A model generated the notes under the pieces. It saw only the letters and a list, made by a program, of their open reading frames with translations, did no database searches and had not been told where the DNA came from. A program made the translations under genes and the position numbers. From IMG/VR virus record IMGVR_UViG_2671180986_000008: DNA of 4,189 nt. One strand, given 5' to 3'. Of this stretch, positions 1-4,189 are shown one piece after another. The stretch is from a virus (taxonomy: Duplodnaviria > Heunggongvirae > Uroviricota > Caudoviricetes). The first letter of the stretch is position 1. Every line of letters starts with the position of its first letter.

Positions 1-11
1 TCAACTGATCC

Positions 12-1169
12 TTAACTGATCGGCATTACACCACCGGGACGCGGATTCATATCTTCCAGGTCGCGGCAGTCATTGGAAGAGTAAATTCCCCAGTTGATCC
101 CGGTGGCGTAGGCTTCAAAACGGGACTTCATATCCCCGCGCAGTAACGCCCCGGCGTTAAATTTGGCGTAATAAACGCCCTGCTTACTTTTTCGTACCAG
201 TCCGGTGTTGATCCGCTGTTCGATGCGGGTCAGATACGGCACCAGTGAATAGTTGATAAATCCCAGCCCCAGCTCTTCGATATTGTTGAAGGTGGCGCGA
301 TCGGTGTTCTGCACCATGTGCAACGGCACCCGGAACAGACGACAGATTTCTTCCAGCTGAAACTTGCGGGTTTCCAGGAACTGACTGTCCTCGGCGTTCA
401 GCGCCATCGACTTCCAGTCCAGCCCCATTTCCAGAATCATCGGGCGGTGAGCATTGCCAAGCCCCGTGTGACACTCCTCAAAATCTTTCTTCAGACGCTC
501 GTAAGCATCCGGCGTGAGCTTTTGTTCCGTACGCAACACACCGGATGTCACCGCACCATTACTAAACAACCTGGCACCGTGCTCCTCGGTTGCCGCTGCC
601 AGTGAAATGGCCTCACGCGCATACGCAATGGGATTCAGCCCGACAAGTCCATCCAGCGTCAGGGTGCGCACATGCCAGATTTCATTCTGGGTCAACACAT
701 CCACGGAACCATCCGGAAACGTCACCTGATAAACCGGCTGCCACTGGCTGTTCAGCTTCGGTTCCACACAGCCCGGATCTATCGGAAGAAGCTCCACCAC
801 TTCTCCCAGTGCCTTTACCTTGTAGGCGTAAAAATTCCCCCGTAGACACAGGCAGACAATAACCAGCTCCCAGAATTCCTGCGGTGTCATGTAGCCATTA
901 GGTTTTGCCGAAACCAACTTATGCAGTCGTTCATCCACCGCCCGTGTTTTCAGGGTACCGCTGATTTTGTAGAGACTGCAGGGCAGCATACCAACAGACT
1001 CTGCCAGCACCCTGACGCAAGAATAGACCGCCGTCAGGCGCATGGCCCGCTGGCTACTGATCCGCTTTCCGGTATAGGTGTCGTATGACAGCCCGATAGC
1101 ATCAGCCAGTTCTGCTGGCGTGGTCACCGGCACATCGCTTTTTCGTTGAAATAATCCCGAAAAGAACAC
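12..1169 (-). CDS. Phage portal protein, HK97 family (385 aa)
   Basis: Long uninterrupted minus-strand ORF with a GTG start at 1167-1169, preceded by a GGAGGT Shine-Dalgarno (reverse complement of 1175-1180) with a 5-nt spacer, and a TAA stop at 12-14. It sits just downstream of the large terminase gene, as in HK97-like phages. Length and sequence character fit HK97-family portals; this is recalled from memory, not searched. Confidence 0.85.
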   Translation of the reverse strand: MFFSGLFQRKSDVPVTTPAELADAIGLSYDTYTGKRISSQRAMRLTAVYSCVRVLAESVGMLPCSLYKISGTLKTRAVDERLHKLVSAKPNGYMTPQEFWELVIVCLCLRGNFYAYKVKALGEVVELLPIDPGCVEPKLNSQWQPVYQVTFPDGSVDVLTQNEIWHVRTLTLDGLVGLNPIAYAREAISLAAATEEHGARLFSNGAVTSGVLRTEQKLTPDAYERLKKDFEECHTGLGNAHRPMILEMGLDWKSMALNAEDSQFLETRKFQLEEICRLFRVPLHMVQNTDRATFNNIEELGLGFINYSLVPYLTRIEQRINTGLVRKSKQGVYYAKFNAGALLRGDMKSRFEAYATGINWGIYSSNDCRDLEDMNPRPGGVMPIS

Positions 1170-1437
1170 TATTTACCTCCGCCGACAGACTGCCGTGTAC
1201 GGTCGAGATATCGCGCCACCAGCCACGACCAGAACAGGCACAGCGCCCCGGCAACAACANNNNNNNNNNNNNNNNNNNNNNNNNNNNNNNNNNNNNNNNN
1301 NNNNNNNNNNNNNNNNNNNNNNNNNNNNNNNNNNNNNNNNCAACAAAACCCGCCGGGGGATAAATCAGCCAGGCACCATACGCCAGCAAAAGCGCACCCA
1401 GCACGCCCACCAGAGGCGCGAGAATCAGCATGATCAT
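1169..1437 (-). CDS. Small hydrophobic (predicted membrane) protein between large terminase and portal; only the N-terminal 32 codons (1341..1437) are directly supported, 3' end and frame after the N-run uncertain
   Basis: ATG at 1435-1437 follows a GAGGT Shine-Dalgarno (reverse complement of 1442-1446), 11 nt after the large terminase stop. The N-terminus [32 protein letters not shown] is a transmembrane-like helix with E. coli-like codon usage (CTG/GCG rich). The ORF then enters the N-run 1260-1340. After the N-run, a different frame reads [29 protein letters not shown] and ends at TAG 1169-1171, sharing one nucleotide with the portal GTG start. The ORF-track frame instead runs to 1102 through an Arg/Gly/Cys-rich tail that overlaps the portal gene. 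Confidence 0.4.
1175..1180 (-). promoter_or_regulatory. Ribosome binding site (GGAGGT) for the portal gene
   Basis: The minus strand reads GGAGGT AAATA GTG, with the start codon at 1167-1169. Seen directly in sequence. Confidence 0.6.
1260..1340. other. Run of 81 N (masked or unsequenced)
   Basis: Seen directly in sequence. It interrupts the small hydrophobic ORF. Confidence 1.
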
Positions 1438-1441
1438 AATT

Positions 1442-1446
1442 ACCTC
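1442..1446 (-). promoter_or_regulatory. Ribosome binding site (GAGGT) for the small hydrophobic ORF
   Basis: The minus strand reads TAA CT GAGGT AATT ATG: the large terminase stop, then the Shine-Dalgarno, then the ATG at 1435-1437. Seen directly in sequence. Confidence 0.5.
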
Positions 1447-1448
1447 AG

Positions 1449-3182
1449 TTAAAGCGAGCGGATCCCGTAGGACTCAATGTGGTCAGACAGCGTGTCTTCT
1501 TTCTCGTACAGCATGGCTCTGCCAACCGCCATAATCAGCGCAACTGCACCATCGATTTTGTTTTCCGCCTGCTCTTTGACGGGTTTCACCACATCATCGT
1601 TACCCGGCATGTTTTTGCCGACCACGTTGCCGATACACCAGGTCATGATGGGATTGCCGTCATGATGAAAACGTCCCGATTCAATCGCTGCTTCCAGCTC
1701 TTTCATCGGATCGGACATATTGGTGAAGTTCTGGACGATAGTGACGGGATTCAGGTCTTCATCAGCAAGGTCATGTGACAACCCGGTCGCCCCGAAGGGG
1801 TCGATGGGTGACTCACTGACCGGGCTGATTTTGTTCGCCGCTTTGGCCTCCTCGAGGATGTAGCGATAATCCACCTCCGCACCATCGGTAACGGTCAGAA
1901 CGCCCATTTCCACCCATTTCTGAAAGCGTTCGGCTGTCCGTCGATCTTCATTTTTCTCGACGCTGTACACCGTGTCATACGGTACCCAGAAACGCGGGGC
2001 CACACTGTAGTAATGCGTTTTACCGTCAATCTCGCGGGTATAAAGTCGCGCCATGCTGTTCATATCCAGCTTACGCGCCAGGTCAAAGGCCAGAATGCAC
2101 GGCTGCCCCTCGAACTGCTCAAGGGTCAGTGATTTATCCTCGCAGCTCTGCCAGCTCACCAGGTTGAAATACGCCGAACGCGCCGACACCCAGATATTGA
2201 GGTGTTTTGTTTTAAAGACGTTTGCCAGACGGGCGTTATTTTTCGCACGCTGCTGCTGACTTAACAAAAATTCGCGATAAACCGACACGCCAATATTTGG
2301 ATTGGCTTTTTCCAGCACCTGCGGGCCGGTCCAGTCGTCACCTTCATCAACGGTATAGATGATCCCGAACAGTTCATCGTTAGGCACCGAGCCGTTGAGC
2401 ATCTCGATGACTTCCCGCCGCTTGTCGTAGCACGGCCCCTCAATGTTGTACCCGGCGGTGGTGATGGCCCACATCAGTGGCTGACGTCGCGCCCCCATCC
2501 CGGTAAGCATTGTGGTATAAAGCGCATCGGTGGCATGCTCGTGATATTCATCAACCACGGCACAGTGGGGTGATGAACCATCACCTGGGTTGCCGATCAG
2601 CGGTTCAAACCGCGCGCCATCCTCCGGACGGTTCATGTTTGAGGCGTTAACCTCAATCCCGAACGCTTCCGTCAGCATGGGTGTGCGTTTACACATCAGT
2701 CGCGCCGGGCGAAAGACTTCCCACGCCTGTTTCTCTGTCGTGGCACCGGAATACACTTCCGCGCCAAACTCGTTATCACAGGCAAAACAATACAGGGCAA
2801 CACCGGCAGAGATTGCTGATTTGCCGTTCTTACGGGGGATTTCGGTGTACACCTCCCGGAAGCGGCGCAACCGGGTGCCTTTATTGACCCAGCCAAACGC
2901 ACAGCAGATCACAAATAGCTGCCACGGCTCCAGCGTGATGGGCATCCGTTTGAATGCCCACTCCCCCTTGGTGTGCGGCAACAGCTGAATAAATTTCGCG
3001 GCCCGTTCAGCCAGGTCCTTGTCGAAGCGGTAACGAAACGACTTACTTTTTTCCGCCATCAGGTCATCAAGATGGCGCTGGCAGGCCTGAATCACAAACT
3101 GGCAGGCAACAATCTTTCCGCGCACGACATCCCGGGCATACTGATTTGCAGCATTTACGTTGGGGTAAGATTTCCGGCTCAT
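1449..3182 (-). CDS. Phage terminase large subunit (TerL, Terminase_1-like; 577 aa)
   Basis: 577-aa ORF with ATG at 3180-3182 and TAA at 1449-1451. Walker A-like motif IPRKNGKS at residues 115-122 (nt 2817-2840). Walker B-like VVDEYHE near residues 209-215 (nt 2538-2558). C-terminal nuclease-type acidic motifs: ILAFDLA with the Asp at nt 2082-2084, DLADED, and KIDGAVAL. It lies directly downstream of a P27-type small subunit, with an ATGA overlap. Confidence 0.93.
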
Positions 3183-3654
3183 GATTCGATAATTTTCAGA
3201 AACGGGTTAGTGGCTTTCTTCTGCCCCGCCAGGCCAATCAGACGCTGGCGGCTGCTGGGGTCGAGTCCGAGCATTGCCCCCGTGCTGCTCATCTCGGACT
3301 CCTGTTCTTTTTTGGCGGTCAGCTCCGGATTTTTGACCCTGCCGCCCATTGCACCGGTGATGGTGTTGCCCTGTATGGCAATATTTTTCACGGCACGTCG
3401 CCAGAACTCATAGGCCACGCACCACCGCTCAAGTACCGCCAGGTCAGTCACGCACAGCAGGCCCTGACCGCAGAGTTCTTTGGTTGTCAGTTGCCACATG
3501 ATCGTGGCGAGAGGGAGATCTTCTTCAGCGAACCACTCTGGTGGCTCAACACCTTTGATGGGCGTAAAAACAGGTTCATCTTTGTTCAGGGCTCGCTTGC
3601 CGGGGTTTCCGGCCAGCGCCTTGCGCGCCGTTGGCTTGGGGCGACGCCCGGAAC
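3179..3654 (-). CDS. Phage terminase small subunit, P27 family (start codon hidden in the N-run; visible part about 158 aa)
   Basis: The minus-strand frame is open from the N-run edge (3654) to the TGA at 3179-3181. The visible N-terminus [31 protein letters not shown] matches the conserved start of P27-family small terminase subunits (GRRPKPT...GNPGKR). The codon at 3653-3655 reads NGT and cannot be a start, so the true start lies at least one codon into the N-run. The ORF-track call 3179..3499 is an internal ATG of this same frame. Confidence 0.85.
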
Positions 3655-4059
3655 NNNNNNNNNNNNNNNNNNNNNNNNNNNNNNNNNNNNNNNNNNNNNN
3701 NNNNNNNNNNNNNNNNNNNNNNNNNNNNNNNNNNNNNNNNNNNNNNNNNNNNNNNNNNNNNNNNNNNNNNNNNNNNNNNNNNNNNNNNNNNNNNNNNNNN
3801 NNNNNNNNNNNNNNNNNNNNNNNNNNNNNNNNNNNNNNNNNNNNNNNNNNNNNNNNNNNNNNNNNNNNNNNNNNNNNNNNNNNNNNNNNNNNNNNNNNNN
3901 NNNNNNNNNNNNNNNNNNNNNNNNNNNNNNNNNNNNNNNNNNNNNNNNNNNNNNNNNNNNNNNNNNNNNNNNNNNNNNNNNNNNNNNNNNNNNNNNNNNN
4001 NNNNNNNNNNNNNNNNNNNNNNNNNNNNNNNNNNNNNNNNNNNNNNNNNNNNNNNNNNN
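3655..4059. other. Run of 405 N (masked or unsequenced)
   Basis: Seen directly in sequence. It hides the 3' part of the HNH gene, the HNH-TerS intergenic region and the TerS start codon. Confidence 1.
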
Positions 4060-4189
4060 ATCACCGTCCATTTTGAGCCATAGCCACGCTGGTGGCGGCT
4101 CAGTCCGCGCTGGTGCTGCACCCAGCCTTCACCGCGATGTTTATCGCAGTAACCCGAACTGTCTGTGGTTGTACCTGCACATCCACGCT
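4060..4189 (-). CDS. Phage HNH endonuclease (terminase-associated), partial: 5' end beyond the window edge, 3' end in the N-run
   Basis: The minus-strand frame is open from the window edge and reads RGCAGTTTDSSGYCDKHRGEGWVQHQRGLSRHQRGYGSKWTV. The Cys cluster (C..G...YC.KH) followed by HQRG.SRHQRGYGS.W resembles the N-terminal region of HNH endonucleases that sit just upstream of terminase genes in HK97-like phages. The catalytic HNH motif itself would fall in the masked block, so this call rests on the N-terminal region and gene context only. Confidence 0.65.

Follow-up and report, generated by a model that had tools for sequence, protein, structure and literature searches.

The small hydrophobic ORF between the large terminase and portal genes of a Shigella sonnei-type prophage remnant is the annotated gene ymfR

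In phage λ, the slot between the terminase and portal genes is taken by gpW, a soluble protein. HK97 gp15, which acts in superinfection exclusion, is a moron; morons have a promoter and a terminator of their own, are patchy in their presence and in many cases deviate in GC content. Small inner-membrane proteins with two transmembrane (TM) helices are common among exclusion and host-modulating functions. Class II holins are likewise small proteins with two TM helices, in an N-in/C-in orientation and with a charged C terminus. In phage T4, the portal initiator is membrane-bound, and the phage-encoded gp40 helps it to assemble at the inner membrane (PMC9958956).

The window analyzed here, a stretch of 4,189 nucleotides from the IMG/VR virus record IMGVR_UViG_2671180986_000008, is a Shigella sonnei-type prophage remnant in which ymfR lies within a head module of the P27/ST64B/SfII type, which is HK97-like. 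YmfR of the K-12 element e14 (WP_000605605.1), L37 of phiP27, Sb3 of ST64B and the "membrane protein" of SfI and SfII are all the same gene, with a 95 to 98% identical protein of the same length. These homologs occupy the same slot between the large terminase (TerL) and portal genes and have the same 1-nt stop/start overlap as ymfR of the window. The two settings differ in that the window gene is split by a run of Ns, whereas in K-12 it is the neighboring terminase and portal genes that are fragmentary (loci L020 and L022). The exact TerL protein of the window, with the Pfam domains TerL_ATPase and TerL_nuclease, is recorded in 4305 blocks, including S. sonnei Ss046 (CP000038.1), and four related loci (L005, L007, L008 and L010) carry an IS4 transposase gene after the portal gene. 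All sequence features of the small-ORF site, on the minus strand, were confirmed (Table 1). Indeed, the earlier note on this DNA had called the ORF well signalled, with its GAGGT Shine-Dalgarno (SD) sequence, an ATG 11 nt after the TerL stop and a TAG that shares one base with the portal GTG, and each of these signals is present. The portal SD, GGAGG (1180-1176), lies inside the final ymfR codons (GGGK), and the final G of the ymfR TAG doubles as the opening G of the portal GTG (1169-1167). The N terminus of the portal protein, MFFxGxF, is itself hydrophobic.

Table 1. Features of the 4,189-nt window
Feature	Coordinates	Strand	Remarks
IS4-family element end, 28 nt	1..28		Reverse complement TAATGCCGATCAGTTAAGGATCAGTTGA; the window, and the contig, terminates within the repeat
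Portal gene, PF04860 type	29..1169	-	GTG start at 1169; cut at ~codon 380 of 413 by the IS4-family element
ymfR, 3' part	1169..1259	-	Helix 2, basic tail, TAG stop at 1171-1169
CAACA, copy of a 5-bp direct repeat	1255..1259		Other copy at 1341-1345 (+ strand); single copy in all relatives
N-run of 81	1260..1340		Flanks overlap by 5 bp on L010, hence read as a scaffold-gap artefact
ymfR, 5' part	1341..1437	-	ATG at 1437-1435; codons 1-32, helix 1 and IYPPAG turn
TerL-ymfR spacer, 11 nt	1438..1448	-	SD sequence GAGGT at 1446-1442; same in relatives
Large terminase (TerL) gene	1449..3182	-	577 aa, intact ORF; TAA stop at 1451-1449
Small terminase (TerS) gene (P27 family, Terminase_4), 3' part	3179..3654	-	Start masked by the second N-run
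Second N-run, 405 N	3655..4059		Corresponds to 330 real bases: HNH 3' end, cos region, TerS start
HNH endonuclease gene, internal fragment	4060..4189	-	100% match to L010 3069-3198, within HNH 3038-3388

The small hydrophobic ORF at 1169-1437 is the prophage gene ymfR (PHROG 502), which has already been annotated. A search for remote homologs, as the earlier note had proposed, gave a match to the PHROG 502 profile at E = 2.8e-28, with residues 1-55 aligned to profile positions 3-57 of 58, and the RefSeq name for the orthologous coding sequence at this position is "protein YmfR". Homologs of 59 to 61 aa were found in 166 to 353 database clusters, and a YmfR profile search collected 412 representatives at 50% identity that bear the signature (S/T)YGAWL(I/V)YxPAG(F/Y). 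Against the Klebsiella, Buttiauxella, Enterobacter and divergent E. coli loci, dN/dS is 0.11 to 0.22, at saturated dS. The profile match, the homolog clusters, the 412 representatives and the dN/dS values put the ORF beyond chance, and they indicate that ymfR is protein-coding and under purifying selection. YmfR had no significant match in Pfam (the best, TctB at E = 0.025, is under the cut-off for that family), nothing significant in NCBIfam and, in a fold search against viral structures, only non-significant matches to uncharacterized small proteins.

Copies of ymfR occur in up to four places per E. coli genome and in two in S. flexneri, the basis for supposing that it may be a multi-copy repeat in S. 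sonnei, and a closely similar segment made up of the TerL end, ymfR and the portal start is present in ~30% of complete E. coli genomes. We considered an RNA element as the reason why the ymfR island is nearly 100% identical in nucleotide sequence and rejected it: no Rfam family matched, the folding z-score was +1.39, and distant relatives have no excess of nucleotide conservation. We prefer to regard the island as a recombination joint that the modules have in common. A match in a Defluviitaleaceae MAG (L034) was spurious and lies within a TM segment of an ABC transporter.

Two hydrophobic segments flank the 81 Ns, and their frames differ if the run is taken as 81 nt. The earlier note had left the choice between a single two-helix protein, with an N-run that is not frame-exact, and two short peptides. 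The single protein stood and the pair of peptides did not: in 10 loci of the Shigella sonnei type, ~99.9 to 100% identical to the non-N segments of the window, ymfR is an unbroken 183-nt ORF with 60 continuous codons, for which AlphaFold2 (AF2) predicts a hairpin. The 5' part of ymfR is 100% identical to L010 5746-5842, and the flanks of the run map to L010 up to position 5842 and from position 5838, a 5-bp overlap, giving a true gap of -5 nt. The window is 86 positions longer here than any relative examined, the excess being made up of 81 N and 5 repeated bases. Because the flanks overlap, no sequence appears to be missing at the run. The second N-run served as a control and shows that run length is not preserved in this window; its overshoot of +75 nt (405 N for 330 bases) is similar to the +86 nt of the 81-N run. 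Most assemblies have this TerL on contigs of 2 to 10 kb, and the window breaks off 28 nt into an IS4 repeat, both of which are common marks of short-read drafts. We have high confidence that the 81-N run represents a scaffold gap of overestimated size between contig ends that overlap by 5 bp, and the organism most likely carries an intact ymfR.

A 5-bp direct repeat is also the mark left by the insertion of a transposable element, which counts against the artefact reading. The run could then hide a real insertion in this strain, and ymfR would here be a disrupted pseudogene; the candidates are an 86-bp tandem duplication and a transposable element or MITE that duplicated 5 bp at its target site. 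The exact repeat CAACA does stand on both sides of the run, genomes of the S. sonnei type abound in IS elements, one of which cuts the adjacent portal gene, and an 86-bp tandem duplication would by our reasoning give the identical flank geometry. However, the insertion is absent from all 10 near-identical loci, and a gapped-pattern search of genome_contigs and viral_contigs, with matching of literal Ns as its control, found no insert of 66 to 96 nt at this site. A 51-mer specific to the window had no match in viral_contigs either, and the X-containing ORF of 111 aa is not on record. No foreign bases or element ends stand beside the Ns, whereas the contig end in the IS4 element keeps 28 nt of it; moreover, an IS of ~1.3 kb would not be rendered as 81 N. 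A systematic bias in gap size explains both overshoots, which two independent insertions do not. We regard a hidden insertion as quite unlikely and retain the scaffold gap. The homolog variants of 71 aa and similar lengths were also inspected and are scattered frameshift products rather than insertions at the N-run site. The practical lesson is that neither length nor frame across N-runs in windows of this kind should be taken for granted.

The earlier note had treated the ORF as a non-canonical insertion in HK97-like modules that normally run straight from TerL to portal. That description fits HK97 itself and is not a general rule. The order TerL-YmfR-portal is found at each of the 14 true family loci that come from species-representative genomes and also in Klebsiella, Buttiauxella and Enterobacter, so that a synteny comparison for presence or absence between the two genes shows ymfR to be a fixed member of the head module. 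The 1-nt overlap of ymfR stop and portal start is present at 14 of 14 loci examined. In viral contigs, where 80 diverse loci were scanned with an alignment restricted to divergent YmfR sequences, a portal-like ORF lies directly 3' of ymfR in 79, and 43 of the 57 cleanly called junctions overlap by 1 or 4 nt. Some viral loci have extra DNA between TerL and the small ORF, and there too the ORF adjoins the portal gene. Moreover, three loci (L019, L026 and L032) have swapped TerL and kept YmfR and portal together. Co-divergence points in the same direction, with YmfR and portal correlated at rho = 0.62 (Mantel p = 2e-4), YmfR and TerL at rho = 0.29 and TerL and portal at rho = -0.01. In SfV, TerL is 98% identical, the portal protein is only 30% identical and there is no YmfR; an analogue from PHROG 7105 fills the slot. 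The signature, as YGAWLIYxPAGF, is kept even at locus L033, where TerL and portal are only 25 to 35% identical. These comparisons indicate that ymfR is passed on, and diverges, together with the portal gene rather than with TerL. The adjacency and co-divergence of YmfR and portal could stem from physical linkage alone, and this counts against reading a shared function into them. Taken jointly, the identity of ymfR, the gap artefact and the linkage to the portal gene are very probably correct, a judgement that leaves mechanism aside.

YmfR is a protein of 60 aa with two hydrophobic helices, a conserved uncharged IYPPAG turn and a short basic tail. The AF2 model is a helix-turn-helix hairpin with helices at 2-25 and 27-56 (pLDDT 74), hydropathy likewise gives two hydrophobic segments, and all of the charges fall within the C-terminal tail. 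From hydropathy and charge, we infer a probable N-in/C-in topology in the inner membrane. In alignments, the membrane-embedded and turn region is the best conserved part, and the C-terminal tail is variable save for the GG that is encoded by the SD sequence. The E. coli-group proteins begin M-I-M, and most members begin MIL or MFL.

No sigma-70-like promoter and no terminator were found on the coding strand in 900-1800 by consensus scans. The GC content of ymfR (0.607; GC3, 0.672) is like that of its neighbors TerL (0.542; 0.647) and TerS (0.586; 0.655), and its translation is coupled to that of the genes on both sides. YmfR accompanies every portal of its lineage examined and is missing only with a portal module of another type. 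The designation as moron cargo in the earlier note is not supported by these properties. Since ymfR has no signals of its own, has its SD after the TerL stop and overlaps the portal start with its stop, it would be made late, on one mRNA with TerL and portal. In e14, ymfR is induced along with the rest of the element under SOS-inducing treatment (PMC10012262).

What the protein does can be stated only tentatively. The single most likely option, though one that we hold to be well short of probable, is that YmfR is a portal-linked inner-membrane factor of head assembly. The hairpin would act with the portal at the inner membrane, where it would tether, chaperone or localize the newly made portal protein, a role that may be functionally comparable to that of the gp40-dependent, membrane-bound gp20 portal initiator of T4. 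Several observations count against such a role. HK97 and λ build heads without a gene of this kind, so YmfR cannot be essential for heads of this fold generally; and conservation peaks in the membrane-embedded turn rather than in the cytoplasmic tail that would be expected to touch a cytoplasmic portal. Pfam, NCBIfam and the viral-structure fold search gave no sequence or fold similarity of YmfR to any characterized protein, gp40 included. A broader and rather speculative proposal, which we consider doubtful, is that the YmfR family, all 412 representatives and perhaps PHROG 7105 with them, forms an unrecognized "portal-leader" class of two-TM hairpins, which in many temperate phages of the HK97-like type would be translated just before the portal and bring portal synthesis or ring nucleation to the inner membrane.

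The conservation of the membrane and periplasmic-turn region is in line with a rival function, in which YmfR is cargo for the host envelope that blocks DNA entry by a superinfecting phage or modulates a host membrane protein, its place beside the portal being incidental. In PHROGs, the category of family 502 is "moron, auxiliary metabolic gene and host takeover", and the two-TM form fits exclusion and host-modulating proteins. However, with neither promoter, terminator nor GC deviation, expression from a repressed prophage is not expected, and the position adjoining the portal is invariant over very divergent modules, unlike that of patchy morons. PADLOC defence models gave no families at E <= 1, and deletion of ymfR from K-12 had no host phenotype, although no phage challenge was reported (PMC9145139). 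These results lend no support to the superinfection exclusion or host modulation raised in the earlier note, and envelope cargo seems to us unlikely. The same tight coupling at both ends, with the portal SD in the last codons and a tail that varies save for the SD-encoded GG, would suit a peptide that has no function at all, the ORF serving only as a translational bridge that sets portal output from ribosomes leaving TerL. Such a bridge is at odds with a dN/dS of 0.1 to 0.2 and with retention of the signature at L033 and over the 412 representatives; two conserved TM helices would be superfluous in it, and HK97 has direct TerL-to-portal coupling. We find it very unlikely.

A part in lysis, as a class II holin, a pinholin, an antiholin-like hairpin or a late membrane-depolarizing factor, is suggested by the match of YmfR to the class II description in size, helix number, predicted N-in/C-in orientation and charged C terminus, and by the resemblance of the M-I-M start to a dual-start motif. 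However, the second Met is not conserved, and neither Pfam nor NCBIfam yields a holin family match. Moreover, the same elements already hold a full lysis cassette upstream of HNH (Phage_holin_2_1, lysozyme and the Rz-type Phage_lysis), and ymfR is always beside the portal gene and never beside an endolysin. A lysis function is therefore highly improbable, and the portal-linked factor remains our leading, if tentative, reading.

For this window itself the significance is very small: the gene is already annotated, and the frame puzzle is most likely an assembly artefact. The broader point is that a strongly conserved small membrane protein is tied to the portal gene in hundreds of divergent phage lineages, while literature searches for ymfR, Sb3, phiP27 L37 or a terminase-portal membrane protein returned no functional study. 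Genes of this type are often left unannotated, as in SfV and SfIV, or mislabelled. Should YmfR act in the assembly of portals or heads, the assembly pathway of a large group of HK97-like phages would gain a membrane step; and if the portal-leader proposal is true, membrane-associated head initiation, so far a matter of T4 and its gp20 and gp40, would be widespread.

Among the known systems, λ gpW shares only the slot. Several phage records call ymfR "head-tail joining protein W", which looks like a positional mis-annotation; unlike gpW, YmfR is a hydrophobic hairpin, and it matches no Pfam family, that of gpW included. HK97 gp15-type morons are similar as small membrane proteins in the late structural operon of a temperate phage, and differ in promoter and terminator, GC shift and patchiness. 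Pinholin S21 shares with YmfR the features listed above for class II holins but differs in its profile and in its company, the lysis cassette of these elements already containing a phage 21-type holin. A likeness outside the family is seen in PHROG 7105, whose members include a small unannotated ORF of SfV (2289-2450), CDS0002 of Klebsiella phage vB_VIPKPNMC05 and a gene of Edwardsiella phage EPP-1. These are two-helix hydrophobic proteins of 53 aa whose genes fill the same slot and overlap with both the TerL stop (ATGA) and the portal start; they belong to another portal lineage (30% identical) and do not have the 11-residue YmfR signature. Profiles of PHROG 502 and PHROG 7105 cross-match weakly in both directions (E = 5.7e-6 and 0.022), and the hhalign alignment of PHROG 7105 with YmfR is not significant (probability 4.4%), so that compositional bias may be involved. 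PHROG 7105 is perhaps a sister or an analogue of YmfR. With T4 gp40 and gp20, no sequence or fold relationship was found, and HK97-like phages have not been described as assembling their heads at a membrane. The likeness to T4 would be one of functional analogy only, YmfR being a predicted phage inner-membrane protein that is made together with the portal.

Both halves of the small ORF between the large terminase (TerL) and portal genes can be read in the window (table). Everything that the earlier note had described there from the sequence is present: the Shine-Dalgarno sequence, the ATG, the N-run, two hydrophobic segments and a TAG stop whose G (1169) also opens the portal GTG. The gene is one already known and annotated. 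The region was compared by BLAST with phage records and with complete E. coli genomes: RefSeq annotates the ORF as "protein YmfR", the copies in phiP27 (L37), ST64B (Sb3) and SfI/SfII are named membrane protein or integral membrane protein, and of 5426 complete E. coli genomes 1604 contain the segment. All the matched records carry ymfR as an unbroken ORF of 60 codons. The reconstructed YmfR falls in PHROG 502 ("membrane protein") with E = 2.8e-28; searches of Pfam, NCBIfam and PADLOC returned no significant hit. The SfIV genome leaves ymfR unannotated. Phage records PQ793804.1, ON470584.1, ON470603.1 and ON470580.1 give it the name "head-tail joining protein W", which seems to be taken from its position, as for gpW in lambda; YmfR is a hydrophobic hairpin without similarity to gpW. 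This enterobacterial TerL-ymfR-portal segment at 95-97% identity also appears in OR844959.1 ("Enterococcus phage Efm 3-10", 1764 bp) and in JAEWTL010000102.1 (a "Bacillota bacterium" MAG), both probably contamination or mislabelled records.

Features of the ymfR region in the window
Feature	Position	Strand	Remarks
IS4-family terminal repeat	1-28	.	window ends 28 nt inside; reverse complement TAATGCCGATCAGTTAAGGATCAGTTGA
portal	29-1169	-	cut at about codon 380 of 413 by IS4-family element
ymfR 3' half and stop	TAG 1171-1169	-	readable past Ns
first N-run	1260-1340	.	81 N
ymfR 5' half	ATG at 1437, open up to Ns	-	read from sequence
TerL-ymfR spacer	11 nt	-	contains GAGGT
TerL	3182 to 1449	-	577 aa
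second N-run	3655-4059	.	405 N for 330 real bases in near-identical genomes (+75)

With the N-run taken at its written length of 81 nt, the two halves of ymfR lie in different frames, and this frame break is most probably an assembly artefact. A TerL protein identical to that of the window is found in thousands of assemblies, S. sonnei Ss046 included, mostly on contigs of 2-10 kb, and the three non-N segments of the window are 99.9-100% identical to ten loci carrying the exact TerL. Where relatives read GGGTTT-TGTTG-TTGCC without interruption, the window reads GGGTTT-TGTTG-[N81]-TGTTG-TTGCC. The first N-run is thus flanked by a 5-bp direct repeat, and the window has 86 surplus positions, the 81 N and the 5 repeated bases. 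In the ten near-identical loci the flanks overlap by 5 bp; the true gap, written as 81, is -5. The second N-run takes in the 3' end of an HNH endonuclease gene and the beginning of TerS, as well as the cos region, where there is a G/C-rich inverted repeat. Both runs exceed the real length alike (+86 and +75), and the overshoot is therefore similar in the two. On the simplest reading they are short-read scaffold gaps whose sizes were overestimated by about 80 nt, the contig ends overlapping slightly; an exact-length mask was set aside in favor of this. A gapped pattern allowing 66-96 nt of any sequence at the site, which matches literal Ns as well, had no match in genome_contigs or viral_contigs. 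It is improbable that ymfR is interrupted in this particular strain, whether by an insertion that left a 5-bp target duplication or by a tandem duplication of 86 bp.

Sequence comparison indicates that ymfR truly codes for protein. When it is compared with loci of Klebsiella oxytoca, Buttiauxella, Enterobacter roggenkampii and a divergent E. coli prophage, dS is 1.3-2.0 (saturated) and dN/dS 0.11-0.22. Word-indexed searches returned 166 clusters when the query was one sequence and 353 when it was a profile; among the matches listed, nearly all are Enterobacterales proteins of 59-61 aa. With a full HMM search, 412 of 1.84 billion representatives matched at E <= 1e-3, mostly of 45-80 aa, sharing the signature (S/T)YGAWL(I/V)YxPAG(F/Y)IxxG at the turn between helices. 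The AlphaFold2 model places helices at 2-25 and 27-56 (mean pLDDT 74), and all charges are confined to the C-terminal tail. Hydropathy, charge placement and the model together indicate a two-helix hairpin with both ends cytoplasmic. One small two-helix membrane protein, as the earlier note had allowed, is indeed the right reading, the 183-nt ORF being continuous in relatives.

The same note had also called the ORF a non-canonical insertion and likened it to moron cargo, and this was not borne out. Around ymfR, consensus scans found no sigma-70-like promoter or intrinsic terminator on the coding strand, and its GC and GC3 are in line with those of the neighboring genes. The ymfR stop and portal start share one base (TAGTG, TAATG or TGATG) in 14/14 loci examined, and the portal Shine-Dalgarno sequence sits within the last ymfR codons, which accounts for the invariant C-terminal GG of YmfR. 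The order HNH-TerS-TerL-YmfR-portal-protease-capsid is unchanged in Klebsiella, Buttiauxella, Enterobacter and divergent E. coli. TerL-YmfR-portal holds in all 14 true family loci from species-representative genomes, including an Alcaligenaceae MAG in which TerL is 25% and portal 35% identical. Between these the MAG has a 54-aa ORF with SYGAWLIYEPAGF and the same overlaps, matching PHROG 502 at E = 9e-13 (hhalign probability 97.9%).

Within this module YmfR is linked to the portal. Three loci with TerL of another type (L019 and L026, about 40% identity; L032, a match at the TerL C-terminus only) keep YmfR at 61-66% and portal at 83-85%. In phage SfV (NC_003444.1), TerL is 98% identical to that of the window, the portal only 30%, and YmfR is absent. 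Across 14 loci (91 pairs), divergence of YmfR correlates with that of portal (Spearman 0.62, Mantel p = 2e-4, partial 0.65) and more weakly with that of TerL (0.29, partial 0.37); TerL and portal are uncorrelated (-0.01). A divergent-only alignment was used to retrieve 80 viral contigs, with 57 distinct small ORFs among them. In 79 of the contigs the 200 nt just 3' of the small ORF are spanned by a portal-like ORF, and the stop/start overlap is 1 or 4 nt in 43/57 cleanly called junctions. On the other side, 67 of the 75 loci that could be evaluated have the end of a TerL-like ORF within 150 nt upstream. Five of the loci (L120, L132, L173, L179, L184) have 0.5-1.1 kb between TerL and the small ORF, which the portal still adjoins; in IMGVR_UViG_3300048014_000058 about 720 nt separate the small ORF from the portal-like ORF downstream of it.

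The annotated 99-nt "spacer" of SfV holds an unannotated 53-aa two-helix ORF (2289-2450 of that locus) between TerL and portal. At one end it overlaps the TerL stop (ATGA), at the other GTG 2440, a plausible start for the portal. From GTG 2440 the SfV portal N-terminus resembles those of other portals, and the annotated start, GTG 2392, is probably wrong. The ORF falls in PHROG 7105 (E = 3e-22); cross-hits between this family and PHROG 502 are weak and go both ways. PHROG 7105 ORFs occupy the same slot in Klebsiella, Edwardsiella and E. coli phages and are annotated in Klebsiella phage vB_VIPKPNMC05 and Edwardsiella phage EPP-1, in some records with the same TerL and portal overlaps as in SfV. 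By sequence, PHROG 7105 is a candidate, unproven sister family of YmfR. Portal N-termini (window, L014-L019 and SfV, the last MLLDALFRSKS) start with a short hydrophobic/aromatic motif, which could be a membrane- or YmfR-contacting segment.

In the E. coli/Shigella/Salmonella group, ymfR lies in an island of 98-100% nucleotide identity (window about 1115-1560; 5626-5940 in L010, one of the ten S. sonnei-type loci), common to phiP27, ST64B and E. coli prophages. It takes in about 60-120 nt either side of ymfR; for the interval given, its limits are about 60-120 nt ahead of the ATG and about 12 nt beyond the stop. Within the group dS is 0-0.04 for ymfR, about 1.8 for flanking TerL and 0.3-0.6 for portal. 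The S. sonnei element is a mosaic of L001-like terminase genes and a phiP27-like portal, joined within the island. No RNA family or unusual fold was found in the island, nor was excess nucleotide conservation seen in distant relatives. We read it as a shared homologous-recombination joint between terminase and head modules. Being a short repeat, it is also of a type at which short-read assemblies break; one S. flexneri genome has two copies. The prophage is a remnant. That the window stops inside the IS4-family repeat is what one would expect of a short-read contig, which tends to end at repeats. A G at 1107, missing from 10/10 near-identical loci, leaves the portal frame of the window unbroken between the GTG and the IS junction; complete genomes without it have the portal frameshifted near codon 21. 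Within the TerL gene, window position 2162 shows a C/T difference.

The interest of YmfR lies in its family: widespread membrane proteins, coupled to the portal, to which no function has yet been assigned. We found no experimental work on it in the literature, which mentions ymfR only as an e14 gene: lost on e14 excision, induced along with the rest of e14 (PMC10012262), or used as a neutral integration site, deletion being without phenotype (PMC9145139). Obligatory portal coupling, co-inheritance and co-divergence, late co-expression and the membrane hairpin lead us to propose, tentatively, that YmfR may be an accessory factor in portal or head assembly, with its hairpin acting at the inner membrane. 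Of single mechanisms this is the likeliest, if still a doubtful one: conservation lies in the membrane turn, not the cytoplasmic tail, and linkage alone could explain the correlations with the portal. Less well supported are a host-directed cargo or exclusion protein, a lysis-related protein and a pure coupling leader. That HK97 and lambda do without such a gene also counts against an assembly role; HK97, unlike the window, has none between TerL and portal. The portal initiator of T4, which is membrane-bound and gp40-dependent (PMC9958956), would be an analogue of the role proposed for YmfR.
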